Source: Clostridia bacterium
GTDB taxonomy: Bacteria; Bacillota; Clostridia; Christensenellales; CAG-138
Direction of reading: 5' to 3'
NCBI GenBank assembly: GCA_017554455.1
Contig: JAFZIH010000142.1
Span: forward strand, 1 to 53,924
DNA: 53,924 nt
Of this stretch, positions 2,507-44,232 are shown one piece after another; the stretch's first letter is position 1, and every line of letters begins with the position of its first letter. A program made the position numbers and the translations under genes. The notes under the pieces were generated by a model that ran no database searches, was not told the DNA's origin, and saw only the letters and a list, made by a program, of their open reading frames with translations.

Positions 2507-3865
2507 ATGATCAGTGAAAAAAAGCGAAAGGTATTGTCGCAGAACAAAATGCGGTTCCCGATCGCCATCGAAACGGCCGCAGCGAAGGAATTGTCCGAAA
2601 AAGAGCGGGACGGCGCGTTCTACGAGGAGCTTTTGGAGCTTGCGGTGTCGCTTGCGAACAAGCTGCAGGCATGCGGCGCGGAGACGTACCGCGTGGAGGA
2701 CACGATCAACCGCATCATCGAGGCGTACGGCGTCGAGCGCGTGGACGCGTTCGTCATCCCGAGCAGCATCATGGCAAGCATGGAGACCGACGACGGACAG
2801 ATCCTGACGAAGATCCGGCGGCTGAAAAGCAGCGAAACGCTGTTGGACGGCATTGAGCGCTATTCGGCGCTTTCGCGGAAGATCTGCGCGGAAAAGCCGA
2901 GCATGCGGGAAGCGCGGGCGATGCTCCGGGAGACCGAGAAAAAGGTTTGCCGCTATCCGCTTCCGATCTTCTACCTTGCTGCGTTTCTGATCGGCGTCGG
3001 CTTCGGCGTGTTCTTCGGCGGCGGGATCCTCGAAGGGCTCGCGGCGGGCTTATGCGGGCTTGCGATCGGCGCGGGCACGCGGTTCATGGGCAGATTCCAC
3101 GCGAACGCCTTCTTTACCTCTTTCGTATGCAGCTTTATCCTCGGATTCTTGGCGAACACGTTCACGGCGATCGGATTCGGCAAGAACGCGGACATCACGG
3201 TCATCGGCGCGATCATGCTGCTGGTCCCGGGCTTCCTGTTTACCAACAGTTTGAGAGACGTCATCTACGGCGATACCATGTCCGGGCTCAACCGCCTCGT
3301 GCAGGTGCTGATCATCGGCGTTGCGCTGGCGTTCGGCACGAGCTCCGGGGTCAGCTTGGCGCGGCATATCTTTCCGAACGTCGTGTTTACGCTGGAGCCG
3401 ATCGACCACCCCTTGTGGATCCAATGCATCGCGGGGCTTGTAGGCACGCTCGGTTTCGGGCTGATGTTCAACATGCACGGCCGGGGCATTCCGTTCGCGA
3501 TCCTGGGCAGCATCATTTCGTGGCCGGTCTGCGTACTCTGCATGCGCATCGGGCTTGCGGAGCCGATCGCGTATCTCATTGCGGCCGCCGTGTCCTGCTT
3601 CTATGCGGAGATCATGGCGCGCATCCGCAAGTTCCCGGCGACGAGCTACCTGCTGTGTGCGCTCGTACCGCTGATCCCCGGTTCCGGTATCTATTATACA
3701 ATGGACTTTATCCGCCGCGGCATGCTTTCGGAAGCATATGACAAAGGTATGCTCACCGCGGCGATCGCGGGTTCTATGGCGGTCGGCGTACTGCTCGTTT
3801 CCACCGGCTTCCGCATGTGGGGCGTCGGAAAAAAACGCCGCGCATCCCGGAAAGCAGCCAAATGA
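2507..3865 (+). CDS. ThrE-family (DUF1212 + DUF3815) putative threonine/serine exporter, fused form
   Basis: N-terminal soluble plus TM half (GAETYRVEDT, typical ThrE signature) followed by a second multi-TM half. GAGGA SD at 2492-2496. ATG at 2507. Confidence 0.75.
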   Translation: MISEKKRKVLSQNKMRFPIAIETAAAKELSEKERDGAFYEELLELAVSLANKLQACGAETYRVEDTINRIIEAYGVERVDAFVIPSSIMASMETDDGQILTKIRRLKSSETLLDGIERYSALSRKICAEKPSMREARAMLRETEKKVCRYPLPIFYLAAFLIGVGFGVFFGGGILEGLAAGLCGLAIGAGTRFMGRFHANAFFTSFVCSFILGFLANTFTAIGFGKNADITVIGAIMLLVPGFLFTNSLRDVIYGDTMSGLNRLVQVLIIGVALAFGTSSGVSLARHIFPNVVFTLEPIDHPLWIQCIAGLVGTLGFGLMFNMHGRGIPFAILGSIISWPVCVLCMRIGLAEPIAYLIAAAVSCFYAEIMARIRKFPATSYLLCALVPLIPGSGIYYTMDFIRRGMLSEAYDKGMLTAAIAGSMAVGVLLVSTGFRMWGVGKKRRASRKAAK

Positions 3866-3905
3866 TACGCGCGCAGCGATTAAATGCGCAGAGGGGAGAA
3901 AACAG

Positions 3906-14632: not shown

Positions 14633-14644
14633 AAAGCATTGTGA

Positions 14645-14677
14645 AAAAACAGGCACATTACCGTGCCTGTTTTTTTC
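14645..14677 (+). terminator. Rho-independent terminator after the glpK-ldh2 pair
   Basis: ACAGGCAC-ATTACC-GTGCCTGT followed by TTTTTTT. Confidence 0.8.
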
Positions 14678-14740
14678 GTGACTGCGCAATGGGATCCGCG
14701 GCAACCGCAAATGAAGTTTGTCCGATTTTTGGGAAAAATG

Positions 14741-14769
14741 TTGATTCACAGATTAAAAAGCGTTATAAT
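14741..14769 (+). promoter_or_regulatory. Near-consensus sigma-A promoter heading the lipid cluster
   Basis: TTGATT (14741-14746), 17 nt, TATAAT (14764-14769), 35 nt upstream of ATG 14804. Confidence 0.55.
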
Positions 14770-14803
14770 GGCAAAAGTGATTTAATTTGGACGAGTGTTG
14801 TTT

Positions 14804-16738
14804 ATGACGGATTATCATATCGGTTCCTACCGCTCCATCGACGCCTTTGTGCGGGATAAACTCGACGCGTTCCGCGCCGCCGGGTTTTCTTTCGATGCGC
14901 TGTTCGAGCTGATGTTCCGCGAGACGGAAAACGTCCTCTACGAGCAAAGCGAGGGCTTTCGGATCCGCAAAACGACCTACGGCGAAGCGAAAGCGCAGAT
15001 CCTTTCGCGTGCCGCCGCATTGAAAACGGCTCTCGGAACGTTTCCGAAGGACGCCGTCGTCGGATTGTACCTTGATAATGGGCTCGATTGGATCGAGCTT
15101 TTCTGGGCGATCCTTGCCGCGGGCTTCCGTCCGCTTCTGATGAACCTGCGTCTGCCGGCGCCGCTGCTTGCTGGCGCATTGAAGATCGCGGACTGCCGGG
15201 CGGTCATTGCGGAACAGGGCGATTTTTCCTGCCCTGTGCTGCATCCGGATGAGATCCCGCCCTCCGGCGAACCGATCGCGGCGCAGCCGTTCGGCACGGA
15301 GCTGCTCGTCATGTCCTCCGGCACGACCGAGAACGTCAAGGTCTGCGCGTACGGAGCGGAGGAGTTCTTTTACCAGATCTGCGATAGTTACGGGATCATC
15401 CGGGAACAGCCGCTGATCAAAAAGCACTTTGAAGGCAATCTCAAGCTTCTGACCTTCCTCCCCTTCTATCACGTGTTCGGCCTGATCGCGATGTATATCT
15501 GGTTCGGGTTCTTTTCGCGTACGTTCGTACATTTGAACGACCTCTCCCCGTCCACCATCGTCAACACGATCCGCCGGCACAAGGTCACGCACATCTTTGC
15601 CGTGCCGCTCTTTTGGGAAAAGGTTTTTGAACAGGCAAATAAAGAGATCAAAAACCGCGGCGAACAGACCGCGGCGAAGTTCGACCGCGCGCTCGCTCTG
15701 ACGCAGAAGCTGCCCCGCCCGCTTTCCGCGGCGTTTTCGAAGCTTGCGTTCCGCGAGGTGTGCGACAATCTGTTCGGGGATTCCGTCGTCTATATGATCT
15801 CGGGCGGGAGCTTTCTGGATCCCGCCGTGCAGGCGTTTTTCAACGGCATCGGATACCCGCTCGCAAACGGCTACGGCATGACCGAGATCGGGATCACGTC
15901 GGTCGAGCTGTCCGCAAAGCAGAAATACCTGCGCCTCGGCTGCGTCGGAAAACCGATGCAGAACGTCGAATACCGCATCGATGAAACGGGCGAGCTGCTC
16001 GTTCGCGGGCTTGTGACCGCAAAATACGTGCTGACCGAAACGGGGCGGACGGATCGCTCCGGATGGTTCAATACGCACGATCTTGCGGAATGCGTCGACG
16101 GGCATTACCGCATCCTCGGCCGCGCGGACGATCTCATCGTCGGCGCGAACGGAGAAAACCTGAATCCGAACGCCGTGGAGCCGCTTCTTCGGACGGACGG
16201 GACGGAGATCTGTCTCATCCCCGTCGGCGACGGCGGAAGATCCTCCGCCGTGCTGCTCGTCGGCATGAACCGCATGACCGCCGCGGAAGCGGCAAAAAAG
16301 CTTTTGGACGCGGTGAAAAAGCGGGTCGACCGCTCCGGTCTTTCCGCCGCGATCTCGCGCATCGTTCCGGTTGAAGGTCCTCTGATGGCGGCGAACGAAT
16401 TCAAGCTGAACCGGATCCGTCTCCGCCGCGACTTTGCTTCCGGCGCGCTGCGTCCGCTCGATCTCTCGCAAAAACGCGACGATACGGAAGCCGACGCGCT
16501 TCTAAACCGCATCCGCGCCGTCGTCGCCGCCGCCGTGAACCGCAGCGAGGACGAAGTCGCCTTCGACGCCGATTTCTTCCTTGATCTCGGCGGCACGAGC
16601 TTGGATTATTTTGCCATGCTGACGAAGCTTCGGGACGAGTTCGACGCGCCGTTCCCCCTGGAGGAGACCGGGCTGAAGACCGTCCGCAGCATTGCGGACT
16701 ACGTTCGCAGAGAGAAAGGCGGCGATCTTCGGGTATGA
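14804..16738 (+). CDS. Adenylate-forming enzyme fused to a C-terminal carrier (PP-binding) domain (A-T didomain)
   Basis: ANL-superfamily cores: MSSGTTENVKV (degenerate A3), GYGMTE (A5), WFNTHDL (A7 with H for G), GRADDLIV (A8). The C-terminal ~75 aa carry LDLGGTSLDYFAML (phosphopantetheine Ser). Confidence 0.8.
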   Translation: MTDYHIGSYRSIDAFVRDKLDAFRAAGFSFDALFELMFRETENVLYEQSEGFRIRKTTYGEAKAQILSRAAALKTALGTFPKDAVVGLYLDNGLDWIELFWAILAAGFRPLLMNLRLPAPLLAGALKIADCRAVIAEQGDFSCPVLHPDEIPPSGEPIAAQPFGTELLVMSSGTTENVKVCAYGAEEFFYQICDSYGIIREQPLIKKHFEGNLKLLTFLPFYHVFGLIAMYIWFGFFSRTFVHLNDLSPSTIVNTIRRHKVTHIFAVPLFWEKVFEQANKEIKNRGEQTAAKFDRALALTQKLPRPLSAAFSKLAFREVCDNLFGDSVVYMISGGSFLDPAVQAFFNGIGYPLANGYGMTEIGITSVELSAKQKYLRLGCVGKPMQNVEYRIDETGELLVRGLVTAKYVLTETGRTDRSGWFNTHDLAECVDGHYRILGRADDLIVGANGENLNPNAVEPLLRTDGTEICLIPVGDGGRSSAVLLVGMNRMTAAEAAKKLLDAVKKRVDRSGLSAAISRIVPVEGPLMAANEFKLNRIRLRRDFASGALRPLDLSQKRDDTEADALLNRIRAVVAAAVNRSEDEVAFDADFFLDLGGTSLDYFAMLTKLRDEFDAPFPLEETGLKTVRSIADYVRREKGGDLRV

Positions 16739-17379
16739 TCGGGCTGTTCAACTGGTTTGTGAAGATCACCGGCTGGCCCGTACAGTTTCTGTGCTTTCGG
16801 ACAAAGATCCTCTACGAGGACAGAAAGGTGCAGGGACGGCACATCGAAAAGGATGCGATCGTGATCTCGAATCATACGTCGATCTTCGACTACGCGGTCT
16901 ATCTGTTCGTGTTCTGTACGCGCACGCTGCGCTTTCAGATGGCGGAGGTGCTGTATGAAAAGCCGCTGCTCGCGCTGCTTCTGCGGTGTCTCGGCGGGAT
17001 CCGCGTCGACCGGAACGCGCATGATTTCGGGTTCATGCCGAAATCGCTTTCGATCCTTTCGCGCGGGGGCGTGGTCGGGATCTTTCCGGAAAGCCGTCTG
17101 CCCCGCCCGGGCGAAGCGCGTCCGTTGCCGTTCAAGGTGAGCGCGGCGTATCTCGCGCTTACAAGCGGGTCGAAGATCATACCCGTCGTGACGAACGGAT
17201 CGTATTTTTGCCGCAAACGCGCCCGCGTTCTGATCGGAAAGCCGATCCTCGCCTCCGATCTTCTGGAAGAGGGCGTCGGCGAAACGGAGAATCTTGCCAT
17301 CGTTTCCGAACGGCTTCGGGAACGGATCATCGCATTGGAGAAACTGCTGTATGGAACAGAAACGACCGAATCGCGCTAA
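16735..17379 (+). CDS. PlsC/LPLAT-family acyltransferase 1
   Basis: HX4D block ISNHTSIFD and FPESRL block. ATGA overlap with the upstream stop. Confidence 0.85.
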   Translation: MIGLFNWFVKITGWPVQFLCFRTKILYEDRKVQGRHIEKDAIVISNHTSIFDYAVYLFVFCTRTLRFQMAEVLYEKPLLALLLRCLGGIRVDRNAHDFGFMPKSLSILSRGGVVGIFPESRLPRPGEARPLPFKVSAAYLALTSGSKIIPVVTNGSYFCRKRARVLIGKPILASDLLEEGVGETENLAIVSERLRERIIALEKLLYGTETTESR

Positions 17380-18031
17380 GCTGTTTTCGCTGAAATACCT
17401 TGTCTACGACTTCGTCAAGCTGTCCGCCGCGCTTCCCGGGATGATCTGGCTGCGCCCGCGCTGGCGGTTTGAATCGGAAGCCGCAAAAAAGCCGATCCGC
17501 GGCGGCGCGCTGGTGATTTCGAACCATGACGGATTCTTCGATCCGGTCAACGTGATGTTTGCGGTCTGGTACCGGCGGCACCATTTCGTCTGCGGCAAAG
17601 AGTTCTTTGAATCAAAGGCGAAATGGTGGTTCGAACGGTTTCTCTGCATTCCGATCGACCGGCAGAATTTTAATTTCGGTTCGCTTCGGGAGATCACCGA
17701 CGAACTCAAAAGCGGTTCGCTCGTGTCCATCTTTCCGGAGGGACACATCAACGACGGCAGCGGCGACCTTTCCGTATTCAAGTCCGGTCCCGTGCTCATT
17801 GCGCTGCAGGGCAAGGCGCCGATCGTGCCGGTCTACGTGAAGCCGAGAGCGCATTTCTATAACCGTATGACCTTTGTCATCGGAGAACCGATCGACCTCT
17901 ACGCGCGGTACGGCAAGCGCCCGCCGATGTCCGAGATCGACGCCGTCGCCGAAGAGCTTCGGCGAAAAGAAGAAGAATTAAAACAAATTGCATATAGGAA
18001 CAGGAGGAAAACCGATGCAGACACCAAGTAA
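17351..18031 (+). CDS. PlsC/LPLAT-family acyltransferase 2
   Basis: ISNHDGFFD and IFPEGHI blocks. GGAGAA SD upstream of ATG 17351. Overlaps the upstream gene by 29 nt. Confidence 0.85.
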   Translation: MEQKRPNRAKLFSLKYLVYDFVKLSAALPGMIWLRPRWRFESEAAKKPIRGGALVISNHDGFFDPVNVMFAVWYRRHHFVCGKEFFESKAKWWFERFLCIPIDRQNFNFGSLREITDELKSGSLVSIFPEGHINDGSGDLSVFKSGPVLIALQGKAPIVPVYVKPRAHFYNRMTFVIGEPIDLYARYGKRPPMSEIDAVAEELRRKEEELKQIAYRNRRKTDADTK

Positions 18032-19529
18032 AGAGATCTTTCGCAAATACACGGACGAAAAGACGTTTGAACGCATCCGTGAATTCACGACCGTTTCCGC
18101 GATGTGGGAACACTGCGTAAACGAATATCCCGACGCGCCGGCGATCGTCGACGAAGGGAAAGCCAGAAGCTTTGCGGAGCTGGAAGCGGACGTCGCGGGC
18201 TTCCGCACACTTTTGAAGGACTGCCCGGTCGGCACGCGCGTTGCGATCTTTGCCGCGAACTCCTATGATTTCGTCAAGGCATACCTTGCCGTCGTGACCT
18301 CGGGCGCGACCGCCGCAATCTTCCCGGCGCATCTTCCCGCGGAAGCCGTGTTCGGCTGCTGCATGATGTTCGGCATCAAAAAGCTCGTCTATCAGGCGGA
18401 TTTCGAGCCGCGTCTTGCGATCGTCAAGGCAAAGCGGCCCGACATCGCGCTGATCCCCGCCGACGCCGTTTCCGACGAAAAGACGCCGCTCGTGCCGTGC
18501 GAGCCGAAAACGCCGTGCGCGATCGTCTTTACGGGCGGCACGACCGGCAAGAGCAAGGGCGCGCTGCTTTCGAACGACGCGGTGATGCAGGGCACGATCA
18601 ACGGCTGCTACGGTTACCCGGACGTGTTCGGTCAGCGCTACCTTCTGGTGCTGCCGCTTTCGCACGTGTTCGGCCTGATCCGCAACCTCATGACCTCGCT
18701 CTATACCGGCAGCGCGCTGTACATCTGCCGCAACAATAAAGATATGTTCCGCGACGTGGCGGTCTTTAAGCCGACGATCATGGTCATCGTGCCGGCGCTT
18801 GCGGAAATGGCGCTGACGCTTTCCAAGAAATTCGGACGCAACATGCTCGGTACGGACCTCAAAACCATCATCTGCGGCGCGGCGCCGGTGTCGCCGTTCC
18901 TCGTCAAAGAATACGACAAGCTCGGCATCAAGCTGCTGCCCGGCTACGGTCTCACCGAGTCCGCAAATCTCGTCTCCGGCAATCCGGAAAGTCTTAGTAA
19001 ACCCGAATCCGTCGGTCTGCCGTTCCCGAATCAACAGATCCGGATCGAAAACGGCGAGCTGTGGCTGAAGGGCCGCAACATGATGGAGGGCTACGTCGGC
19101 GTGGAAGAACCCGGCGCGTACGAGGACGGCTGGTTCCGTACCGGCGATCTCGTGCGGTTCGATGAGGACGGCTATCTCTACATCACCGGCCGCATCAAGG
19201 AGATCATCGTTCTGCCGAACGGCGAAAACGTCTCCCCCGCCGAGGTCGAAGTCCATTTCAACGCGCTCCCGTTCATCCAGGATTCGCAGGTCTTTGAAGC
19301 CCGCAGCGCGCTGGGCGAGCCGATCCTCGCGCTGGAGGTGGTTCTGCGTCCGACCGAGCTCACGGATATGGACGACGCGGCGCGCAAGGCGTACGCCGTC
19401 GCGGAGCTTGAAAAGATCAACCGCACGCTGCCCGGCTTCCAGCAGGTCAGCCGCATCACCGTCCGGGATACCGACTTTGAACGGTCTCCCGCCATGAAGA
19501 TCGTGAGGTACAAGAATGTCCAGAACTGA
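18015..19529 (+). CDS. Fatty-acid--CoA/ACP ligase-like AMP-binding enzyme
   Basis: Canonical cores FTGGTTGKSKGA, GYGLTES, WFRTGDL, GRIKEIIVLPNGENV. AGGAGGA SD upstream of ATG 18015. Confidence 0.85.
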   Translation: MQTPSKEIFRKYTDEKTFERIREFTTVSAMWEHCVNEYPDAPAIVDEGKARSFAELEADVAGFRTLLKDCPVGTRVAIFAANSYDFVKAYLAVVTSGATAAIFPAHLPAEAVFGCCMMFGIKKLVYQADFEPRLAIVKAKRPDIALIPADAVSDEKTPLVPCEPKTPCAIVFTGGTTGKSKGALLSNDAVMQGTINGCYGYPDVFGQRYLLVLPLSHVFGLIRNLMTSLYTGSALYICRNNKDMFRDVAVFKPTIMVIVPALAEMALTLSKKFGRNMLGTDLKTIICGAAPVSPFLVKEYDKLGIKLLPGYGLTESANLVSGNPESLSKPESVGLPFPNQQIRIENGELWLKGRNMMEGYVGVEEPGAYEDGWFRTGDLVRFDEDGYLYITGRIKEIIVLPNGENVSPAEVEVHFNALPFIQDSQVFEARSALGEPILALEVVLRPTELTDMDDAARKAYAVAELEKINRTLPGFQQVSRITVRDTDFERSPAMKIVRYKNVQN

Positions 19530-19767
19530 GATCATCGAAAAGCTCAGAGAGATCCTGATCGCCGCGGACGACCGCAGCCGCGACAAAGTCGCCGCCTGCA
19601 CGGAGGAATCCCGGCTGGTCGCGGACCTCGGCTTCTCCTCCGTGAGCATGCTCTATATGGTCATTGCGATCGAGGAGGAGATGGGGATCCGCTTCGACAA
19701 CGTCGGCGCGTCCGATTTTGAGACGCTCGGCGACGTCGTCAGCTTCATCGAGGCGAAGCTGAAATGA
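19516..19767 (+). CDS. Stand-alone acyl carrier protein
   Basis: 83 aa, four-helix ACP pattern with DLGFSSVSML attachment-site motif. Start overlaps the ligase stop by 14 nt. Confidence 0.8.
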   Translation: MSRTEIIEKLREILIAADDRSRDKVAACTEESRLVADLGFSSVSMLYMVIAIEEEMGIRFDNVGASDFETLGDVVSFIEAKLK

Positions 19768-20801
19768 AATGGCGGCCCGGCGAGCCCGCTCCGGGCGATA
19801 TGGTGCGGGTGCAGATCGGTTCGATCTTCCATTACGGGATCTATGCGGGCGACGACAGGATCATCGCGTTCGGTCTTCCGCCCGTCCCGCAATACGCCGA
19901 CGCGCCGGATCGGTTTCTCGTCGTGGAGACGGATATGGACGTGTTCTGTGTAGGACGCATTCCGGAGATCGCGATCCTCGACCGCGCGGAGCGCAAAAAG
20001 CGCATCCCTCCGGATAAAACGGTGCGGCTTGCGAAGGAACGCCTTGGCACGGACGGATACCATCTGATCCGCAACAACTGCGAGCACTTCGCCTACGAAT
20101 GCGTTTTCGGCGAAAAAAAGAGCGAGCAGGAGGAAGCGGTATTCCGAATGTGGAACGCTCGTCCGGTCCTGAACGTGTATCTTGGAGAAGCCGATCGCTT
20201 CACGCTCGATTTCCCCGTCCCGCCGGAACGGGAACGCGAGATCAACGCCTGCTCCGATCCTGCAATGCGGCAGGCGCGGATCGCAAACTGGGCGCTTCTC
20301 CGGCGCGCCGCGAAGCATTGTTTCTCGCTCGACGCGGACGAACTCCGCTTCGTCCGGCAAAAGAACGGCGGATGGTCGTGCGACCGCTTCCCGTTTTCGT
20401 TTTCGCATGCGGACGGGCTTTGCTGCGTCGCGGTCTCGAACGCGCCGGTCGGCGTCGATCTGGAAACGCTCGAAGGGTTTTCCCGCAGGTCAGCTGCGGA
20501 AAAGCTCGATAAGCTTCGTAAAAGGTGCTTTTCGGCTGCCGAGCAAAGCGCGTATCCGGAAACGGTCGAGGGCTTCCTCGCCTGTTGGACGCGGAAGGAA
20601 GCGATCTTCAAGGCGTCGAAAAAGCGCGCGTTTTTCCCTGCCGGGACGGATTCGCTCACGGATTCCGTCGTGACGTTTCAGCTTTCCGAACCGCGCGCGC
20701 CGATCGTCTCCGTTTTCGGTCCCAATACCGCGTTTACGCGATTCTTCGTCGCGGACGAAAACGGGATAAGGCCGATCGGCGGCGAACCAATGAAATTCTG
20801 A
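19764..20801 (+). CDS. LRAT/PLAAT-like (NlpC/P60 superfamily) domain fused to Sfp-type 4'-phosphopantetheinyl transferase
   Basis: N-terminus: FHYGIY (His) ... LIRNNCEHFAYEC (NCEHF catalytic Cys signature of the LRAT/H-Rev107 family). C-terminus: FSFSHADG...PVGVDLE and WTRKEAIFKA (PPTase motifs). Confidence 0.75.
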   Translation: MKWRPGEPAPGDMVRVQIGSIFHYGIYAGDDRIIAFGLPPVPQYADAPDRFLVVETDMDVFCVGRIPEIAILDRAERKKRIPPDKTVRLAKERLGTDGYHLIRNNCEHFAYECVFGEKKSEQEEAVFRMWNARPVLNVYLGEADRFTLDFPVPPEREREINACSDPAMRQARIANWALLRRAAKHCFSLDADELRFVRQKNGGWSCDRFPFSFSHADGLCCVAVSNAPVGVDLETLEGFSRRSAAEKLDKLRKRCFSAAEQSAYPETVEGFLACWTRKEAIFKASKKRAFFPAGTDSLTDSVVTFQLSEPRAPIVSVFGPNTAFTRFFVADENGIRPIGGEPMKF

Positions 20802-20811
20802 GGAGGACGGT

Positions 20812-21753
20812 ATGCTCTGGATCCTTGCGGCTTTGATCGGATGCTACGCGATCTTTGTTTTCGCGCCGGCGGTCGTTGCCGTCTGCACGATCTTCCGGGC
20901 AAAACCGGGCGACCCTCTCGAACGGCTGATCGCGCCCGACGGACAGTTCGCAAGATTTGCAGACCGCATGCTGAAAGCGCGCAGCCGGCTTTCCGCGCTT
21001 CAAAAGACGCACGTCTCGATTTCCGCGCGGGACGGAGTCACGCTTTCGGGCGACTATTACGATCTCGGAAGCGGCAGGACTGCGATCTTCGTGCACGGCT
21101 ACCGCACCGATCCGGAGGTCAATTTCGTCGTACAGGCGGACGTCTTTGCCCGCCGCGGATACAATCTTCTGATCATCCGCCAGCGCGGGCACGGCGACGG
21201 ATCCCGCGCGCGCTGCGGGCTCGGTCTCAATGAGCAGCACGACGTCGCCGCGTGGAACGAATGGGCGCTCGGGCAGAAAGGCGTCGCCGAAACGGTGATT
21301 TACGGCGTTTCGATGGGCGCTGCGGCGATCGGCTTTGCCGCCTGCGATCTCGACCCGAAAAAGACGCGCGCGCTCGTGCTCGACTGCGGGTTTCGCTCCC
21401 CGTATGAGCAGATCCGCCTTGACTGCAAGCGGCGGAACGTCCCCGGTTTCCTCATCATGCCGCCCATCCGCCTGCTTGCGAAGCTGTTTCTGCGGCTTTC
21501 GATCAAAAAGCGCACGGACGACGTGCTGAAACGAACGACGATCCCCTGCTTCTTCCTGCACGGAACGGCGGACGAGACCGTTCCCTACGAAACGGGGCGG
21601 GAAGTTTATGAAGCATGCGGTGCAAAAAAGGCGTTCTATACCGCGGAAGGCGCGGGGCACGCCGAGGCGTTCGTTTCCGATCCCGAACGTTCGGAAGCCG
21701 CGCTGTTTGCGTTTCTGGAACAATCAATCGAACCTTACAAAAAAGGGTATTGA
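20812..21753 (+). CDS. Membrane-anchored alpha/beta hydrolase (paralogue 1)
   Basis: N-terminal TM helix, nucleophile elbow GVSMG, later D and GAGHAE His region. GAGGAGGA SD. Confidence 0.8.
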   Translation: MLWILAALIGCYAIFVFAPAVVAVCTIFRAKPGDPLERLIAPDGQFARFADRMLKARSRLSALQKTHVSISARDGVTLSGDYYDLGSGRTAIFVHGYRTDPEVNFVVQADVFARRGYNLLIIRQRGHGDGSRARCGLGLNEQHDVAAWNEWALGQKGVAETVIYGVSMGAAAIGFAACDLDPKKTRALVLDCGFRSPYEQIRLDCKRRNVPGFLIMPPIRLLAKLFLRLSIKKRTDDVLKRTTIPCFFLHGTADETVPYETGREVYEACGAKKAFYTAEGAGHAEAFVSDPERSEAALFAFLEQSIEPYKKGY

Positions 21754-21766
21754 ATAGGAGGATAAC

Positions 21767-22702
21767 ATGAAATCATTTGCAATTCTTGCCGACGGTACCT
21801 GCGATCTCAATGAATCGTTCAGCACGGAGTACGATATCCGGGTCCTGCCCGGACACGTCGTTCTGCCGGATAAGTCGGATATCCCCGGTCCGCGCGCGTG
21901 GGATCGTTTCTCGCGCGACGAGTTTTATGCCGATCTTCGGAAAAATCCGAACGGCTACGCCACCTCGCCCGCGAACGTCGAGGAGTTCCGCCGCGCAATG
22001 GAAGAGATCGTAAAGGACGGCACGCCGCTTCTGGTCATGACGATCTCCAGCGGGATGTCCGGCACGTTCGACTTTGCCTGCACCGCAGCAGGTCTCGTGA
22101 AAGAGACTTATCCGGACGCCGAGATCCGCTGCATCGACACGCTGCGCTTCGGTCCCGGCTTCGGGCTGATGGCGGTCCGCGCCGCGATGCTGCGCGCCGA
22201 GGGCAAGACGATGGAAGAGGTCGCGGACTGGCTTGAGGAAAACAAGAACCGGTTCCATCAGGCGGGCTGGCTCGACGATCTGAGCTTCGTCGCAAAGAAG
22301 GGCCGTCTGACCAACGCGAAGGCGTTCTTCGGCACGCTCGCGGGCATCAAGCCGATCGGCGAATTCGACTACAACGGCATGACCACGGTCATCGGCAAGG
22401 CAAAGGGCGCGAAAGCAGCGTACGCCGCGCTGCTCGAATACATCGGGCAGACCGCGGAAAACCTGTCCGACCAGATCGTCTTTATCGCGCAGACCAACCG
22501 TCTCAATCAAGCGGAAACGTTCAAGCAGCTCATCGTGGAACGCTTCCATCCGAAAGCGATCTATATCAACGACGTCTTCCCGTCCTGCGGGATCAACATC
22601 GGACCCGGCCTCATGGCGGCGTATTACGTGGGCAAGCCCATTTCCAAAGATCTCTCGGAAGAACGCGCGATCATCGAAAAAGCGCTTTCCTCCGGCAAAT
22701 AA
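21767..22702 (+). CDS. DegV-family fatty-acid-binding protein (FakB-like)
   Basis: ILADGTCDL start, TSPANVEEF and ISSGMSGTF blocks typical of the DegV/EDD fold. Confidence 0.85.
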   Translation: MKSFAILADGTCDLNESFSTEYDIRVLPGHVVLPDKSDIPGPRAWDRFSRDEFYADLRKNPNGYATSPANVEEFRRAMEEIVKDGTPLLVMTISSGMSGTFDFACTAAGLVKETYPDAEIRCIDTLRFGPGFGLMAVRAAMLRAEGKTMEEVADWLEENKNRFHQAGWLDDLSFVAKKGRLTNAKAFFGTLAGIKPIGEFDYNGMTTVIGKAKGAKAAYAALLEYIGQTAENLSDQIVFIAQTNRLNQAETFKQLIVERFHPKAIYINDVFPSCGINIGPGLMAAYYVGKPISKDLSEERAIIEKALSSGK

Positions 22703-22735
22703 CGGTCCCTTTTACGGGGTAAGAAAGGAATCCTT

Positions 22736-24073
22736 ATGAGAAAACTCACCAAAAAATGGCAGATGTTCCTGTACGCCATCGGCGGTATGGGCGTCAACAT
22801 GCTCAACCTGATGGTCAACTCGTACCTGTGCAGCGCGCTCATCGCTTCGGGCTTCAACCCGAGCGTCGTCCCGTTCCAGACGTTCCTCGGACGCGATCTC
22901 GTCATCGCGGGCGTATGGGCGGTGTTCGGCGTCATCGCGAAAATCATCGACGGCGTCATCGACGTCCCGATGGCGTCGTTTACGGACAATCTGAAAACCA
23001 GATTCGGCCGCAGACGTCCGGCGCTCATCATCGGTCTTGTTCCGATGCTCCTTGCGTACGTCCTGTTTACGCTCGTCACGCCGAATCCGGCGGGCGCAAC
23101 GCTTTTGAATACGGTCTTCTACGGCGTGACGCTCTGCGTGTTCTACAGCTTCTACACGCTGACCATGGTCACGTATTACGCGACGTTCACCGAGATCGTC
23201 GACACGCAGGAGGAGCGGAACTTCATGTCGAACGTGAAATCCGTCTGCGACATCCTGTACTTCATCCTCGGCTATGTCGTGGTCCGCGCGCTGCTGAACG
23301 GCATGAACGTCCGTCCGGTGTCCATGATCGTGCTTCCGATCGTGCTGACGATGCTGATCCCGCTGCTTCTCATCAAGGAAAGCTCCACCAAGGACGGCGT
23401 GATCAGCCGCGACGGCGAGGAAACGTCCGTTTCGGTCAATCTCTTCAAGTCGATCGCGTATACGTTCAAAAACAAGGACTATATCCTGTGGATGGTCGTG
23501 TACTCCTTCATGACGTTCGGCGTACAGCTCTTCCTTTCCGGCATCAACGAGTACTTCTCCGTCGCGGGGATGAACATGATGTTCGTCATGATGGCGGCGT
23601 TTGCGCCCGTGCCGTTCACCCTGCTCATCTATAACAAGCTGACGAAAAAGCTCGGCTTCGGCTTCTCCTACCGCTATACGCTCGTGATCTTTGCCGTCGG
23701 CATGGCGGCCATGTTCGCGGTCTCCTATCTCGAGGCGGGAACGCTGAAAACGATCCTTGCGATCGTCACGGGTCTCATTTCCTCGTTCGGCATCGGCGCC
23801 ATGTTCTCCGTTGCGTACTCCGTGCCTTCGGAGCTTGCCGCGGAGGAGGAAAAGCGCACCGGGATCTCGAACGCCGCGATGTACTTTGCGGTGCAGGGGC
23901 TCTTTGCGGGCGTCGCCTCCGGCATCGGCGGACAGGCGGTGCTGACGCTGATGAAAACGAACAACGTCGTGAAATATCTGACGCTGGTCTGCGCGATCGC
24001 CGTGCTTGTCGCGTTCGCGCTGTCCTTCCTGCTGCCGAAGTCCGTCACGCTGATGGGCAAGAAAGACGAATAA
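22736..24073 (+). CDS. MFS transporter of the GPH/MFS_2 type
   Basis: 12 predicted TM segments. Loop 2-3 signature DGVIDVPMASFTDNLKTRFGRRRP resembles the GPH D-x-x-D...GRRRP motif. Confidence 0.8.
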   Translation: MRKLTKKWQMFLYAIGGMGVNMLNLMVNSYLCSALIASGFNPSVVPFQTFLGRDLVIAGVWAVFGVIAKIIDGVIDVPMASFTDNLKTRFGRRRPALIIGLVPMLLAYVLFTLVTPNPAGATLLNTVFYGVTLCVFYSFYTLTMVTYYATFTEIVDTQEERNFMSNVKSVCDILYFILGYVVVRALLNGMNVRPVSMIVLPIVLTMLIPLLLIKESSTKDGVISRDGEETSVSVNLFKSIAYTFKNKDYILWMVVYSFMTFGVQLFLSGINEYFSVAGMNMMFVMMAAFAPVPFTLLIYNKLTKKLGFGFSYRYTLVIFAVGMAAMFAVSYLEAGTLKTILAIVTGLISSFGIGAMFSVAYSVPSELAAEEEKRTGISNAAMYFAVQGLFAGVASGIGGQAVLTLMKTNNVVKYLTLVCAIAVLVAFALSFLLPKSVTLMGKKDE

Positions 24074-24119
24074 CACGGCTTTTGCCGCATCGGAACGATT
24101 TGCGGCGAGATGTAAAAGT

Positions 24120-25757
24120 ATGGCAATCAAACGAATCAACGGGATCGAACTGGAACAGATGTTGAGAAACGGGCTCGCGAACCTTCGCGCAAGCGAGGAT
24201 GAGATCAACCGCCTGAACGTCTTCCCCGTCCCCGACGGCGATACCGGCACCAATATGGTCAAAACGCTGGAGCACGGGCTCTCTCTCGCAGAGCGCAGCA
24301 GCGACGTCAGTGTATTTACGAAGTCCCTGTCCTCCGGCACGCTGCTCGGCGCAAGAGGCAACTCCGGCGTCATCCTGTCGCAGTTCTTCTACGGCTTTGC
24401 GCAGGCGCTTTCCCGCGCGGTCCTGATCGGACCGGGCGAGCTTCGCAACGCGCTGGTGCGCGGATATCGCGTCGCCTACGGCGCGGTCCGCAAGCCGGTG
24501 GAAGGCACGATGCTGACGGTCTCGCGCGAGGGGATCGAACACATCCGTTCCCAGATCACGCGAAACTCCTCGATCGACTTCATTCTCTCCGCCTACGCCG
24601 CCGAGATGCGGAAAACACTGATCCTTACGCCCGAAATGCTTCCCGTGCTCAAGGACGCCGGCGTAGTTGATTCCGGCGCAACGGGGTTTATCCTGATCTT
24701 TGAAGGCATGGTGAAGTATCTGCGCGGCGAGGTCCTTGAGGATACGGCGAAGCAAACCGAATCAAAGGGAACCGATCCGGATTTCAGCCGGTTCAATGAG
24801 GACAGTCTCTTTATCGACGGCTACTGCATGGAATTCATTCTGCAGCGCATGAGAAACCCCGCCTATGAGCAGGATTTCAGTATCGAGGCGTTTCTCGGCG
24901 CGCTCGACCGGCTCGGCAACTCCATTGTCTGCGTGCAGGACGGAAAGCGCGTGAAGGTGCACATCCACACGAAAGCGCCCGCCGTCATCATTGAGCTGGC
25001 GCAGCGGTACGGCGAGTTTCTCACCTTCAAGCTCGAGAACATGCAGATCCAGCACAACGAGCACGACCGGCTCGCAAAGCCGAAGGCGCACAAGCCGCTG
25101 TCCATCGTCGCCGTCGTCAACGGCGCGGGCATGCGCAAGCTGTTTGAGGGACTCGGCGCGGACTGTGTGATCGAGGGGAACGCGACCATGAACACCTCCT
25201 CGCAGGAATTCGTCTCCACGTTCGAATCCATCGACGCCGACGCGATCGTCGTACTGCCGAACAACAAGAACGTGATCCTTGCCGCCGAGCAGGCGGCGTC
25301 GCTCGTGCCTGACAAACACGTGACCGTACTGCCGTCCAAGAGCTTCGTCGAGGGCTACTACGCGATCGCAATGGACATCCCGGACGAAAAGAACCTCGAA
25401 AAGCGGATCGCCGGAATGCGCTCCGGCATCGACAACATCATTACCCTGCGGGAAACGACCGCCTCGCGCGATTACACGTACCACGAGATCCGCTGCCGCC
25501 GCGGCGAGGATATCGCCTTCCTGGGCGGCGAACTCGTCTGTGTCGACAGCGATTGGAGATCCGCGATCCTCGGCGCGCTCGCGATGATCGACGATATCGA
25601 AGACCGCGAGACCGGCATCGTTCTGCGCGGCAGGGATGCGTCCGCTTCCGACGAGGAGCGGCTCACGGAGGCGATCGCCGAACGGTATCCGATGCTCGAG
25701 TTGGAGTTTGTGGACGCCGGTCAGGAGATCTATCACTGGGAAATCGGGATCATGTGA
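24120..25757 (+). CDS. DAK2-domain protein (YloV/FakA-like fatty acid kinase catalytic subunit)
   Basis: N-terminus LNVFPVPDGDTGTNM (DhaL/Dak2 motif), ~545 aa, with a C-terminal DegV-like/FakA_C region. Confidence 0.85.
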   Translation: MAIKRINGIELEQMLRNGLANLRASEDEINRLNVFPVPDGDTGTNMVKTLEHGLSLAERSSDVSVFTKSLSSGTLLGARGNSGVILSQFFYGFAQALSRAVLIGPGELRNALVRGYRVAYGAVRKPVEGTMLTVSREGIEHIRSQITRNSSIDFILSAYAAEMRKTLILTPEMLPVLKDAGVVDSGATGFILIFEGMVKYLRGEVLEDTAKQTESKGTDPDFSRFNEDSLFIDGYCMEFILQRMRNPAYEQDFSIEAFLGALDRLGNSIVCVQDGKRVKVHIHTKAPAVIIELAQRYGEFLTFKLENMQIQHNEHDRLAKPKAHKPLSIVAVVNGAGMRKLFEGLGADCVIEGNATMNTSSQEFVSTFESIDADAIVVLPNNKNVILAAEQAASLVPDKHVTVLPSKSFVEGYYAIAMDIPDEKNLEKRIAGMRSGIDNIITLRETTASRDYTYHEIRCRRGEDIAFLGGELVCVDSDWRSAILGALAMIDDIEDRETGIVLRGRDASASDEERLTEAIAERYPMLELEFVDAGQEIYHWEIGIM

Positions 25758-25767
25758 GGAAAACGGT

Positions 25768-26730
25768 ATGGTTTGGTTCTGGATTCTGATCGCGCTCGGC
25801 GCGCTGCTCCTTTCTTTCATCGTGTTCACGATGATCATTGCGTGGATCATCTATTCCACGCTGCTAAGGCGCAACAAGCCCGGCAAATGGGACCGCGGCT
25901 GCAGCTTCCCAGAGGATCCCGAATACTGCAGAATGCACGACATCGGGATCGAATGGGGAAAACGGTACGCCGATCGCAAGCGCGACGTCGAGATCAAAAG
26001 CGACGGGCTCCGGCTCGTCGGCGAATACTTCGATTTCGGCGGCAGCTCCGCCGCGCTGATCATCGCGGGACGGACGGAAAGCGTGCTGTACTCCTATTAT
26101 TTCGCGGAGCCGTTCCGCCGCGCGGGACGCAACGTGCTGGTCATCGACAACCGCGCGCACGGGCTTTCCGAAGGAAAAGCGAGCTGCCTCGGATACTGCG
26201 AATACCGCGATATCCTCGAATGGTGCCGTCTGCTGCACGACGACCTCGGCAACGAACGCGTGTTTCTGCACGGGATCTGCATCGGCTCCTCCACCGCCCT
26301 GTTTGCGCTGACTGCGCCGCAGTGCCCGGACTATATCGAAGGCATGTCGTGCGAGGGGATGTACTATTCCTTCTACCGTTCCTTCGACAACCACATGAAG
26401 ATCGACCGTCCCGAAAAGAAGCGCTTCCCCGTACAGCAGGAGGTCATGCTCTGGATCCGGCTCTGTTCACACGCAAACGTCGTGACCGACGGGCCCTTCA
26501 AGCGCATCGGAAAGCTCAATAAGCCCATTCTGTTCCTGCACAGCCGCGAGGATCCCTATTCAACGCCGGACCAGGCGGAATACCTCTATGCGCACTGCAC
26601 CGCGCCGATGAAAAAGCTCGCGTGGTTCGAACACGGCGCGCACTCGCGCATCCGCATCAACGACACCGAAAAGTACGACGACACCATTGTGGACTATCTC
26701 AAGGCGCTCGACGAACAGGCCGCGCACTGA
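25768..26730 (+). CDS. Membrane-anchored alpha/beta hydrolase (paralogue 2) with Cys at the nucleophile position
   Basis: N-terminal TM helix. The elbow reads HGICIGSS (G-x-C-x-G, codon TGC). Downstream SREDPY (Asp) and EHGAHS (His). GAGGA SD upstream of ATG 25768. Confidence 0.8.
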   Translation: MVWFWILIALGALLLSFIVFTMIIAWIIYSTLLRRNKPGKWDRGCSFPEDPEYCRMHDIGIEWGKRYADRKRDVEIKSDGLRLVGEYFDFGGSSAALIIAGRTESVLYSYYFAEPFRRAGRNVLVIDNRAHGLSEGKASCLGYCEYRDILEWCRLLHDDLGNERVFLHGICIGSSTALFALTAPQCPDYIEGMSCEGMYYSFYRSFDNHMKIDRPEKKRFPVQQEVMLWIRLCSHANVVTDGPFKRIGKLNKPILFLHSREDPYSTPDQAEYLYAHCTAPMKKLAWFEHGAHSRIRINDTEKYDDTIVDYLKALDEQAAH

Positions 26731-26767: not shown

Positions 26768-26796
26768 TTGATTTTTGACGAAGTGCGCGGTATAAT
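26768..26796 (+). promoter_or_regulatory. Putative sigma-A promoter
   Basis: TTGATT, 17 nt, TATAAT, 30 nt upstream of ATG 26827 (SD GAAGGAGGG). Confidence 0.45.
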
Positions 26797-26826: not shown

Positions 26827-27108
26827 ATGGAATATAACAATCAAAACAATCTGCAGCAGCCGAATACGCTCGTATTTGGTATTTTGAGCTTGGTCCTCGG
26901 TCCGGTCCTCGCCATCATCTTCGGCGCGATCGGCAAGAAAAAGGGCAAGGAATTTGTTGAGCAGGGCGGTCAGCTCGTCGGCGCATCCAAGGTCGGCGTC
27001 ATTCTCAGCAAGATCGGCTTTATCCTCGGCATCATCGGCACGATCTTCCTGGTGATCTACATCATCCTGGTCGCAGTCGGCGCAGCAAACGGCGCATTCA
27101 ACTTTTGA
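26827..27108 (+). CDS. Small two-TM membrane protein (DUF4190-like)
   Basis: Strong SD. 93 aa. Two hydrophobic helices separated by GKKKGKEFVEQGG. Confidence 0.7.
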   Translation: MEYNNQNNLQQPNTLVFGILSLVLGPVLAIIFGAIGKKKGKEFVEQGGQLVGASKVGVILSKIGFILGIIGTIFLVIYIILVAVGAANGAFNF

Positions 27109-27136
27109 TCATCCGAGGATCGGGGTATGATCCATG

Positions 27137-27170
27137 CGTGACGTCGATTTCCGGCGTCACGTTTTTCTTT
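27137..27170 (+). terminator. Rho-independent terminator
   Basis: CGTGACG...CGTCACG stem followed by TTTTTCTTTT. Confidence 0.6.
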
Positions 27171-27183
27171 TGAAAGGAAGCTT

Positions 27184-28194
27184 ATGAAATCCGCCGCACG
27201 AAAACCGCATCCGATCAAGCGAGCGCTCTGCATCCTTCTCGCTGCGCTCATCTTGTACTGCGCGCTTTCGATGCTTGCGACCGCAGTCGTGTTCCGTGTG
27301 ATCTTTGCGCGAAGGAACGGACTGTCGCCGCTGCGCTATACGTACGCGGAGCTTCAGCCGGACTGCGAACGGACGCGCTTTACCTTCCCCTCCGGCCGCA
27401 ATACCCTGTCCGGTTGGCGGTACGACGCCGACGACCCGAAGGGGCTCATCGTGATCGTCAACGGCATCGGCGACGGCGCGGACGCGCACCTACCTGAGAT
27501 CGTCGCGTTCGTTCATGCCGGATGGTCCGCTGCAACGTGGGACGCGACCGGCGTGGGCGACAGCGAAGGCCGCGGCGTCATCGGACTTCAACAGATCCGG
27601 GAGGATCTTGCCGCTTTCCTCGATTATCGGACGCAGTCGGACGTATGGGACGGGCTTCCCGTCGTGCTCTACGGGCACAGCGCAGGCGCGTATGCCGCCA
27701 CGACGGAGCTTTCCGCGCATCCGGAGGTCAGGGCCGCCGTCTGCATTTCCGGGTTTGACCGCCCCGCTGCGCTGATGCACGCGCACGCAAAAACGCGCGT
27801 CGGCATTCTTGCCGATCTCGAATATCCGTTTCTGTACCTCGAATGTGCGTTTTTGTTCGGTAAAAACGCGGACGATTCCGCGCGCGCCGCGATCGACGCG
27901 GTCACAACGCCGGTGCTGATCGTGGGCGGAGATTCGGACGACCTCGTGCCGTACGACAACAGCCAGATCCGCGATCCGGAATCGTATGCGAATCCGAACG
28001 TCCGCTGTGTCGAGATCACCTCGGCCTATCGCAACGAGCACTCGACCCCGTGGCTTTCCGTCGGCGCCGCGCGCTACCGCGCCGAGCTTTCCGACACGGA
28101 CCCCATCGACAAAGCGCTTGCGAACGAGCTCGATCCCACATTTATGGAAACCGTGCTGCAATTCTTTGAAGACGCGCTCCGCCCGTCCGAGTGA
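27184..28194 (+). CDS. Membrane-anchored alpha/beta hydrolase (paralogue 3)
   Basis: N-terminal TM helix, nucleophile elbow GHSAG, GGDSDDLVP (Asp) and NEHSTP (His). Confidence 0.8.
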   Translation: MKSAARKPHPIKRALCILLAALILYCALSMLATAVVFRVIFARRNGLSPLRYTYAELQPDCERTRFTFPSGRNTLSGWRYDADDPKGLIVIVNGIGDGADAHLPEIVAFVHAGWSAATWDATGVGDSEGRGVIGLQQIREDLAAFLDYRTQSDVWDGLPVVLYGHSAGAYAATTELSAHPEVRAAVCISGFDRPAALMHAHAKTRVGILADLEYPFLYLECAFLFGKNADDSARAAIDAVTTPVLIVGGDSDDLVPYDNSQIRDPESYANPNVRCVEITSAYRNEHSTPWLSVGAARYRAELSDTDPIDKALANELDPTFMETVLQFFEDALRPSE

Positions 28195-44226: not shown

Positions 44227-44232
44227 GTTTTC

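Follow-up and report, generated by a model that had tools for sequence, protein, structure and literature searches.

An eleven-gene operon of gut and rumen Clostridia as a candidate carrier-protein-dependent acyl salvage system

Why should a member of the Clostridia keep, in a single run of tightly packed genes, two acyl-adenylating enzymes, two carriers, two PlsC-type acyltransferases, a phosphopantetheinyl transferase (PPTase) and a fatty acid kinase with its fatty-acid-binding protein? The question is raised by a compact gene array that occupies 14.6-28.2 kb of the plus strand of a 53,924-nucleotide contig (JAFZIH010000142.1, assembly GCA_017554455.1; hereafter the window, by which we mean this whole stretch of DNA) and in which we number the genes g01 to g13. 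The best reading of the array is that g01-g11 form one functional operon, with g12 and g13 as conserved satellite genes. As to what the operon does, we favor, with moderate confidence, carrier-protein-dependent acyl salvage, in which exogenous fatty acids would be re-acylated onto (lyso)glycerolipids.

Chance is not what brought these genes together: their order and tight spacing recur in dozens of species-level genomes. In the genome scan, each species was represented by one genome, and synteny was assessed by tblastn of the window proteins against 80 fetched loci. A neighborhood search with the fusion protein encoded by g06 as the query, a check that the initial annotation of this DNA had proposed, found the order g01-g02-g03-g04-g05-g06 constant in the 80 loci wherever the contig extends, and g07-g08-g09-g10-g11 come next in most of them. 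Non-syntenic homologs, which that annotation had named as a ground for refutation, are decidedly not what is seen, synteny being one of the strongest traits of the locus. The median gaps lie between -26 and +18 nt at every g01-g11 junction (47-79 genomes), and the median identities are 50-63% for g01-g05 and g08-g11 and 37-40% for g06 and g07; orthologs of g01 are present at full length in nearly all loci, at 39-94% identity. The flanking genes are unrelated between loci, and no regulator or lipid gene recurred beside the operon when 452 flanking ORFs (open reading frames) were clustered and 69 upstream neighbors were scanned against Pfam, with the exception of g12-like zinc-ribbon/DUF4190 proteins; neighbors of the TMEM164 family occur in 2 loci only.

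The distribution of the operon was followed through the g06 fusion, which has relatives in 361 species-level genomes. A word-indexed search returned 161 relatives at E <= 1e-5, and among 1.84 billion sequences there were 124 cluster representatives at E <= 1e-30, most of them full-length fusions of 320-355 aa. The hosts among the matches listed are Clostridia, namely, Oscillospiraceae, Christensenellales, Ruminococcus, Acutalibacteraceae and Saccharofermentans, along with a few evident mislabels. Nearly all are metagenome-assembled genomes (MAGs) from the rumen, the hindgut or the human gut, the nearest relative (94% identity) being from a sheep-rumen Clostridia MAG, and the cluster members and match lists of the fusion include MAG or metagenome sources only, with no cultured host.

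In the window, the layout of the genes and the signals around them are consistent with a single transcription unit. The eleven ORFs span 14804-26730 on the plus strand, with gaps of -29 to +46 nt; five junctions are start/stop overlaps (16735/16738 and 19764/19767, both ATGA, as well as 17351/17379, 18015/18031 and 19516/19529), and the remaining gaps are 10, 13, 33, 46 and 10 nt. The co-directionality and coupling of the eleven genes stated in the initial annotation are confirmed, and the five overlaps were given exactly; the largest gap had been put at +47 nt, one more than we count. A Shine-Dalgarno sequence is recognizable at most of the genes, and the gene starts are the same in independent gene calls on near-identical metagenome contigs. 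We place the start of g01 at the ATG at 14804, with an in-frame GTG also at 14795. No credible plus-strand terminator was found within 14.8-26.7 kb, the two hits being 5-bp stems with poor T tails, and neither a riboswitch nor a leader turned up when 13-29 kb was searched against Rfam (E <= 0.1).

The 5' boundary of the unit is set by the intrinsic terminator (14644..14676, plus strand) of an Ldh_2-family gene that lies immediately upstream and ends at 14632. The stem of this terminator, CAGGCAC/GTGCCTG (14650-14656/14663-14669), is followed by a T7 run, and its folding energy is -20.5 kcal/mol (z = -4.66); it escaped a pattern scan, the stem being extended by the A and T runs on either side. 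Next comes P1, a sigma-70-type promoter, TTGATT-17-TATAAT (14741..14769, plus strand), which agrees with the consensus at 10/12 positions and both hexamers of which are kept in close relatives, so that the near-consensus promoter after a terminator described earlier is borne out. It is P1 that begins at 14741, the position formerly given as the start of the unit, whereas the ATG of g01 is at 14804. Abutting the 5' side of the -35 hexamer of P1 is a conserved 17-nt box, GTCCGATTTTTGGGAAA (= GTCCGAWTTTKGSSAAA), at 14720..14736 on the plus strand. The box is found at the same offset, about 84 nt 5' of the ATG of g01, in six loci (L003, L006, L007, L009, L010 and L039) and is retained although the more distal upstream sequence is unrelated among these loci. 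The box is possibly an UP element or the binding site of a regulator; it is not known to resemble the operators of FapR, FabT or FadR. In GC content, the operon does not differ from the surrounding genes or from the rest of the window, and a recent horizontal transfer, which was considered, was not adopted as an explanation.

The first five genes appear to encode the enzymes that load acyl groups on carriers and the enzymes that take them off. The product of g01 (14804..16738, plus strand, as are all the genes below; 644 aa) is an acyl-adenylating enzyme fused to a carrier domain (A-T; AMP-binding, 6e-38; PP-binding, 4e-10). Ser599 in the carrier motif LGGTSL is invariant, and so are motifs A5, A8 and A10 (Lys534) in 69 orthologs. 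Joined to it by a 4-nt ATGA overlap is g02 (16735..17379; 214 aa), a PlsC/AGPAT-type acyltransferase (PF01553, 1.8e-15) in which the HTSIFD block (H47x4D52) and the FPE motif are kept in 77-78 of the 78 sequences. The second acyltransferase of this type, g03 (17351..18031; 226 aa; PF01553, 3e-18), has HDGFFD (H59x4D64) and FPEG invariant in 79/79 sequences, and its only match in the PDB is the PlsC of T. maritima (5kym); the intact HX4D blocks noted before in both enzymes are, thus, genuine. A 17-nt overlap links g03 to the separate gene g04 (18015..19529; 504 aa), which encodes a canonical acyl-AMP ligase of the ANL family (AMP-binding, 2e-56) with invariant TGGTTGKSKG, GYGLTE, TGD, GRxKE and A10 Lys495 (motifs A3, A5, A7, A8 and A10); the closest solved structures are acyl-CoA ligases (about 1e-32). 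We regard g04, by its genomic context, as a putative acyl-carrier-protein synthetase. Both g01 and g04 contain the PxxHVFG motif of acyl-CoA synthetases (PFYHVFG in g01) rather than the FDxS of amino-acid-activating enzymes and, judged by these motifs, are adenylating enzymes of the carboxylic-acid type, not of the amino-acid type. Finally, g05 (19516..19767; 83 aa) is a free-standing, dedicated acyl carrier protein (ACP) in which DLGFSS with Ser42 is invariant in 80/80 sequences; its matches to the NCBIfam ACP models (1.8e-11) are below their cut-offs, and its Pfam PP-binding score is slightly under the threshold. The members of each pair in the operon are distant paralogs, at 23% identity for the adenylating enzymes g01 and g04, 27% for g02 and g03, and 25% for the alpha/beta-fold enzymes g07 and g11.

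The product of g06 (19764..20801) is a fusion in which a PLAAT/LRAT-like cysteine acyltransferase domain (residues 1-125; LRAT, 6e-16) precedes a complete Sfp-type 4'-phosphopantetheinyl transferase (residues ~135-345; ACPS, 2e-9). His23 and Cys106 of the NNCEHF motif are invariant in 82/82 sequences, and the Sfp motifs GxDxE and WxxKExxxK are conserved. The AlphaFold2 (AF2) model (pLDDT 88) falls into two parts: in Foldseek comparisons, the N-terminal domain resembles PLAAT2/3 at TM-scores of 0.72-0.79 (0.71-0.79 with PLAAT4 included) and the C-terminal part resembles Sfp/AASDHPPT at E ~1e-9 over 213-261 alignment columns, and the sequence search of g06 agrees with this assignment. The protein has no predicted signal peptide and no transmembrane (TM) segment. 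At the position of His35 of PLAAT3, g06 has Ala or Gln followed by an invariant Phe, so the second histidine of the triad is replaced. In LnsA, an LRAT-like enzyme of S. aureus that takes the sn-1 acyl chain of phosphatidylglycerol and N-acylates lipoproteins, the Cys/His dyad alone is enough, as it is in LRAT, and the third residue is dispensable (PMC13559823). In the open literature searched, we did not find a combination of LRAT and PPTase domains in bacteria. Some relatives of the fusion are stand-alone proteins, either the PPTase only (~210 aa; for example, P0372, P0374 and P0386) or the LRAT-like domain only (~140 aa; for example, P0370, P0384 and P0387), so the two halves of g06 exist also as separate proteins.

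Downstream of the fusion, the operon combines a fatty acid kinase module with a transporter and two membrane-anchored alpha/beta-fold enzymes. The fatty-acid-binding protein is encoded by g08 (21767..22702; 311 aa), of the DegV/FakB type (PF02645, 4e-56; TIGR00762, 197 bits against a cut-off of 99.7), with invariant Thr66, Ser94, Ser98 and Arg180. In its G-I-N-I-G-P-G motif, residue 277 is Asn in 66 of the 69 orthologs, at a position where staphylococcal FakBs have a carboxylate-binding His; the replacement may reflect a different ligand head-group or binding mode. The catalytic subunit of a FakA-type fatty acid kinase is the product of g10 (24120..25757; 545 aa; Dak2, FakA-like_M and FakA-like_C; TIGR03599, 490 bits against a cut-off of 396), in which DGDTGTNM and GARGNSG are invariant. 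Between these two genes lies g09 (22736..24073; 445 aa), a transporter of the MFS_2 (GPH) type with ~12 TM helices (MFS_2, 1e-26), a candidate lysolipid or lipid-precursor transporter or flippase. It has no match in the PDB by sequence, which speaks neither for nor against a substrate like that of MFSD2A, LplT or MelB.

Of the alpha/beta-fold enzymes, g07 (20812..21753; 313 aa; Hydrolase_4, Abhydrolase_1) is a membrane-anchored hydrolase with a Ser-Asp-His triad (Ser167, Asp254 and His283, invariant in 69/69 sequences). The last gene of the operon, g11 (25768..26730; 320 aa; alpha/beta hydrolase family), had been taken for a second hydrolase; the fold assignment stands, and the nucleophile is an invariant cysteine. 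In the elbow G-I-C171-I-G, Cys171 is aligned to the nucleophile Ser of the esterase 5g59 and, like Asp262 and His292, is invariant in 57/57 sequences. The nearest folds to the AF2 model of g11 (pLDDT 87) are the Pf2001 esterase (5g59) and monoacylglycerol lipases. Given the invariant Cys-Asp-His triad, g11 may well be a transferase and not simply a hydrolase, and we consider it a candidate acyl-thioester transferase. In both g07 and g11, the N-terminal TM helix has 0 K/R residues before it and 4-5 after it (median 4 in g07) in 100% of the orthologs, so that, by the positive-inside rule, the catalytic domains are predicted to be cytoplasmic. For the eleven genes of the operon, Pfam and NCBIfam agree with the domain calls made in the initial annotation.

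The presence of adenylating enzymes, carriers and a PPTase brings to mind a biosynthetic gene cluster for a specialized, possibly secreted or signaling lipid, such as an N-acyl amine or amino acid, an N-acyl-phospholipid or an acylated small molecule. Under this scenario, the carriers would present acyl groups that the PLAAT-like cysteine domain or g11 off-loads to an amine or a hydroxyl, and the MFS transporter would export the product. Among enzymes of natural-product pathways, SyrC and CmaE, with a Cys-nucleophile alpha/beta fold, and the papain-fold BtrH and AdmF indeed move carrier-bound acyl groups. A dedicated Sfp-type PPTase with carriers is typical of secondary metabolism, g01 is named 'non-ribosomal peptide synthetase' (NRPS) by NCBI in several MAGs, an automatic annotation that may make the operon relevant to the mining of such clusters, and the relatives of the g06 N-terminal domain include PLAAT enzymes that make N-acyl-phosphatidylethanolamine and LnsA, which N-acylates lipoproteins. 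An NRPS-like route to fatty acid amides (the Oaa pathway) is, moreover, known in gut Clostridia, with the free-standing condensation enzyme OaaC as a component (PMC13310621). However, a condensation domain is absent from the locus, even though OaaC is part of the known pathway, and so is any tailoring or amine-supplying enzyme; an amide product would leave the two PlsC-type O-acyltransferases and the complete fatty acid kinase hard to explain; and the order and content of the genes are near-invariant across family- to order-level divergence, as in core metabolism and not as in a patchy, fast-evolving biosynthetic cluster. Searches of all 13 genes with Pfam and NCBIfam found no KS, KR, DH, ER, condensation or thioesterase family, nor did Pfam yield a reductase or NAD-binding family, and the previous conclusion that this is not a fatty acid synthase, a polyketide synthase or an NRPS is upheld, since none of the catalytic domain families of these systems was matched. 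Altogether, we think it unlikely that the operon makes a natural product of this kind.

The acyl salvage that we favor would run as follows. The PPTase half of g06 would turn the carrier domain of g01 and the free-standing ACP g05 into holo-carriers, whereupon the adenylating enzymes would load them, g01 acting in cis and g04 charging g05 in trans. The acyltransferases g02 and g03 would then transfer the carrier-bound acyl groups to hydroxyl acceptors at the cytoplasmic face of the membrane; lyso-glycerolipids or derivatives of glycerol-3-phosphate are the likeliest candidates, the identity of the acceptor being among the least certain parts of the scheme. In a role like that of LplT, g09 could bring a lysolipid or another acceptor to the inner leaflet. 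Outside the cell, the satellite hydrolase g13 might act on lipids of the diet or the host to release fatty acids and lysolipids, and FakB and FakA (g08 and g10) would capture the free fatty acids as acyl-phosphate. The least certain roles are those of g07, g11 and the PLAAT-like cysteine domain of g06, which conceivably act in deacylation, transacylation or editing via acyl-enzyme intermediates. By analogy with known proteins, we infer that g01 and g02 (Module 1) are a split form of the acyl-CoA synthetase (ACS)-ACP-AGPAT core of ElbD-like proteins, and that g03, g04 and g05 (Module 2) are a split Aas with an ACP of its own.

Several observations weigh against this interpretation. Enzymes of the PF01553 family also acylate acceptors that are not glycerolipids, for instance, lyso-ornithine lipid. 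The need for two ATP-dependent loaders in addition to the Fak system is left unexplained by the model, and the N-terminal domain of g06, g07, g11 and g12 are given loose roles only. The transporter g09 is of the MFS_2 type, not an LplT-type MFS protein, with no specific match to LplT and no detectable relative of known substrate, and g04 is no nearer to acyl-ACP synthetases than to ordinary CoA ligases and so could make acyl-CoA. The curated models are no more favorable: the proteins score 18-99 bits against PRK08043, PRK08633 and PRK06814, the cut-offs of which are 886-1349, and 48-64 bits against TIGR00530 (PlsC), with a cut-off of 103. On the other side of the ledger, evolutionary rates like those of housekeeping genes and the rigid gene order appear to fit core salvage or remodeling better than a secreted natural product, although a specialized membrane or secreted lipid was the output proposed in the initial annotation.

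The same rates and rigidity would also fit an operon that is housekeeping in the full sense, that is, the main or only route to phosphatidic acid from scavenged fatty acids in hosts that lack FASII (type II fatty acid synthesis) and/or PlsX and the canonical ACP. In such hosts, the parts of AcpP and AcpS would fall to g05 and g06 and that of PlsX to g04, with g02 and g03 serving as the acyltransferases for sn-1 and sn-2. FakA, FakB, an ACP, a PPTase and two PlsC-type enzymes do amount to nearly everything that a fatty-acid auxotroph needs; the operon is situated among guaA, glmS, glnA and pyrG; and all the hosts come from the lipid-rich rumen or gut. Yet the ACP and both PlsC-like proteins fall well under the curated housekeeping models, a subset of genomes has g01-g06 and the MFS gene only, without the Fak block, and some of the loci are labeled Ruminococcus, a genus that has FASII. 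We find a housekeeping role of this scope distinctly unlikely.

The variant loci deserve a closer description. About 9 of them have the g01-g06 core alone, and in several of these 9 an MFS_2 protein of 613-658 aa is encoded between g01 and g02; since in this minority, which lacks the Fak block, the transporter lies within the core, it travels with the acyltransferases. Several of the Ruminococcus-labeled loci are without the MFS gene. In two core-only Saccharofermentans MAGs, a 590-aa Wzy_C (O-antigen-ligase-like) membrane protein is encoded 5 nt after g06 (L070, 11019-12791; L084, 11019-12794), in place of the hydrolase/Fak block. In the locus L003 (ERZ28019272 k141_1387468), g04-g11 match the window at 98-100% at the protein level, and g01-g03 are of the type found in the locus L007 (77-86% identity), along with the L007 upstream region, including a divergent TMEM164-family gene; either two lineages have recombined within g04, or L003 is a chimera of metagenome assembly.

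A more far-reaching version of the salvage scheme is also conceivable, namely, a carrier-protein-based Lands cycle in Gram-positive anaerobes, with acyl exchange among phospholipid, acyl-phosphate and the dedicated carriers that bypasses free CoA esters. Here, the PLAAT-like domain, tethered to the PPTase, would strip acyl chains of phospholipids onto the phosphopantetheine arm or edit them off it, and g11, which starts 10 nt after FakA, would link the PlsC-type acyltransferases with the Fak branch as an acyl-phosphate:carrier transacylase of a new, PlsX-like kind. We offer this cycle as a speculation that is, on balance, quite improbable.

Returning to the operon and its preferred reading as an acyl salvage system, the two genes that follow g11 have to be considered, all the more so because the initial annotation delimited a unit of eleven genes: the operon is indeed g01-g11, but g12 and g13 (26827-28194) are conserved neighbors as well. 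They follow g11 in 31 and 43 loci, with median gaps of ~115 and ~126 nt, respectively, and so are probably under their own control. A second promoter-like site, P2, which like P1 reads TTGATT-17-TATAAT and matches 10/12 positions, precedes g12 (26768..26796, plus strand) and is conserved in the loci L039, L009 and L010. The product of g12 (26827..27108; 93 aa) is a small DUF4190-like membrane protein with 2-3 TM helices and a weak match to DUF4190; in 11 loci, longer proteins that combine a zinc ribbon with DUF4190 are encoded at its position.

Between g12 and g13 there is a terminator-like hairpin, CGTGACGYCG-loop-CGGCGTCACG, with a T-run (27136..27172, plus strand), which has an 11-bp stem with 7 GC pairs and ends 22 nt before the start codon of g13 in the window. 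Its folding energy (27136-27162, then the T-run) is -18.8 kcal/mol, z = -3.85. The stem sequence is the same in 8 loci, among them L005, L006, L009 and L039 and the distant L012 and L013, and is kept even where the identity of g06 is only 45-47%. Conservation of the stem sequence would be unusual for a plain terminator, and the hairpin might have a regulatory role, bind a protein or act as an attenuator of g13. The latter gene (27184..28194; 336 aa) encodes a third alpha/beta hydrolase with a Ser-Asp-His triad (Hydrolase_4, 1.4e-17; Ser166, Asp252 and His286 invariant in 44/44 sequences). Its TM helix has a median of 6 K/R residues before it and 2 after it in 100% of the orthologs, and with this signal-anchor the catalytic domain is predicted to be extracellular.

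The predicted outward orientation of g13 is one of the features that would be expected of a system resembling Dlt, in which membrane proteins convey carrier-bound acyl groups to acceptors outside the cell (a wall polymer, lipoteichoic acid or a lipoprotein). An adenylating enzyme, a small carrier and alpha/beta-fold proteins anchored in the membrane are all encoded in the operon; LnsA provides a precedent for N-acylation of lipoproteins by an LRAT-like enzyme; a TagF-like polymerase is encoded elsewhere in the window, and the Wzy_C protein follows g06 in the two Saccharofermentans loci. The links to Wzy_C and TagF are not conserved, however, and there is no MBOAT or DltB-like channel; g06 has neither a signal peptide nor a TM segment, g07 and g11 are predicted to face the cytoplasm, and PlsC-type enzymes act at the inner leaflet. 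Delivery of acyl groups to the cell surface seems a very improbable function for the operon.

Some other features of the window were recorded alongside the operon. The TagF-like gene (3738-6596, plus strand) encodes a 952-aa protein with GT2 and CDP-glycerol glycerophosphotransferase domains, a composition that suggests synthesis of a teichoic-acid-type polymer, and just 5' of it, at 2405-3865, is a gene for a ThrE-family exporter. On the minus strand, five ORFs (41920-44154, 44368-45366, 46231-46962, 48194-49213 and 50070-51806; 243-744 aa) had no Pfam match at the thresholds used; they lie near genes for a GH32 fructanase, a MalK-like ATPase and a LacI regulator, and some have long ORFs on the opposite strand, so that the true coding strand at 41920-51806 is not settled.

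Little is known of the uptake and use of dietary and host lipids by Clostridia of the gut and rumen. In the Gram-positive route of the textbooks, FakAB, PlsX, PlsY and PlsC work with the housekeeping ACP, and repair of lysophospholipids by LplT and Aas is seen as a Gram-negative feature. Hundreds of uncultured species share this rigidly conserved set of 11-13 genes, in which a Fak system is joined by dedicated carriers, a PPTase of its own, two PlsC-type enzymes, a PLAAT-like domain and a cysteine alpha/beta-fold enzyme. Such a combination suggests that fatty acids may be incorporated, or membranes repaired, by a second route with carriers dedicated to it. Such a route could have a bearing on rumen lipolysis and the fate of unsaturated fatty acids, and on the resistance of gut anaerobes to host phospholipases and bile. 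Two new enzyme architectures come with it, the fusion of a PLAAT-like domain with a PPTase and the cysteine hydrolase linked to FakA.

How, then, does the operon compare with systems already described? No description of the cluster or of the LRAT-PPTase fusion was found in the open literature searched, in line with the initial view that the system is undescribed; each of the domain families is known, and it is their combination that is unmatched by any described system found there. The closest paradigm proposed at the outset was Aas of E. coli, an acyltransferase joined to an acyl-ACP synthetase that, in complex with the MFS flippase LplT, re-acylates lysophospholipids (PMC11416262). The likeness is apparent in the succession of a PlsC-type acyltransferase and an ANL synthetase, as in g03-g04, in the ACP-dependent acyl transfer and in the MFS transporter encoded alongside, as well as in the concept of ATP-dependent re-acylation of lysolipids with free fatty acid. 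The LplT-Aas fusion models PRK08633 and PRK06814 account for the top partial NCBIfam matches of g03, led by PRK08633, and for the second-best of g02; g04 matches the C-terminal synthetase part of PRK06814. The differences are no less clear. The operon encodes separate proteins instead of one fused polypeptide; it has its own ACP and PPTase, whereas Aas uses the housekeeping ACP; the adenylase, the carrier and the acyltransferase are all duplicated; the transporter is of the MFS_2/GPH type, unlike LplT; the genes are linked to FakAB and to three alpha/beta hydrolases; and the host belongs to the Gram-positive Clostridia, whereas LplT/Aas has been described as a Gram-negative system. With the scores of the Aas and LplT equivalog models so far under their cut-offs, the relationship is one of analogy, not of membership. 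The Aas paradigm, accordingly, survives in the partial model matches and in the g03-g04 order, and Module 1 is better likened to FAR1-less ElbD-like proteins.

ElbD, from the ether-lipid operon of Myxococcus, contains ACS, ACP and AGPAT-like acyltransferase domains, and ElbD-like homologs without the FAR1 domain have been noted in anaerobes and are uncharacterized (PMC9131029). Compared by domain content only, g01 and g02 present the same ACS, ACP and AGPAT complement as two polypeptides. Membership in the ElbD ether-lipid system was considered and rejected, the N-terminal FAR1-like reductase domain being absent; the operon has no FAR1-like reductase and no ElbB, ElbC or ElbE, so nothing points to ether-bond chemistry. 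The Oaa pathway shares with the operon its occurrence in gut Clostridia, the use of exogenous fatty acids, adenylation and a carrier protein, and differs in that it has no PlsC, Fak, PLAAT or MFS genes; as a fatty-acid-amide pathway it was rejected for want of a condensation domain in the locus, and membership among the Dlt-like and NRPS systems was rejected as well because their defining parts are missing.

Individual components can be compared as well. Both g10 and g08 pass the cut-offs of the curated YloV and DegV families and keep the catalytic and ligand-binding motifs of FakA and FakB; they differ from the known pair in being encoded within an operon of carrier-dependent acyltransferases and in falling under the Staphylococcus-specific equivalog cut-offs FakA_VfrB and FakB1. 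The N-terminal domain of g06 shares with the PLAAT/HRASLS/LRAT enzymes the permuted papain (NlpC/P60) fold with an invariant His and the NCEHF Cys, and the comparison with LnsA indicates that a Cys/His dyad suffices and that a phospholipid can serve as the acyl donor; unlike PLAAT enzymes, g06 has no membrane anchor or signal peptide and has a PPTase domain in the place of the anchor. Judged by these sequence and fold signatures, membership in the FakA/FakB, Sfp-PPTase and PLAAT/LRAT-like families holds at the family level.

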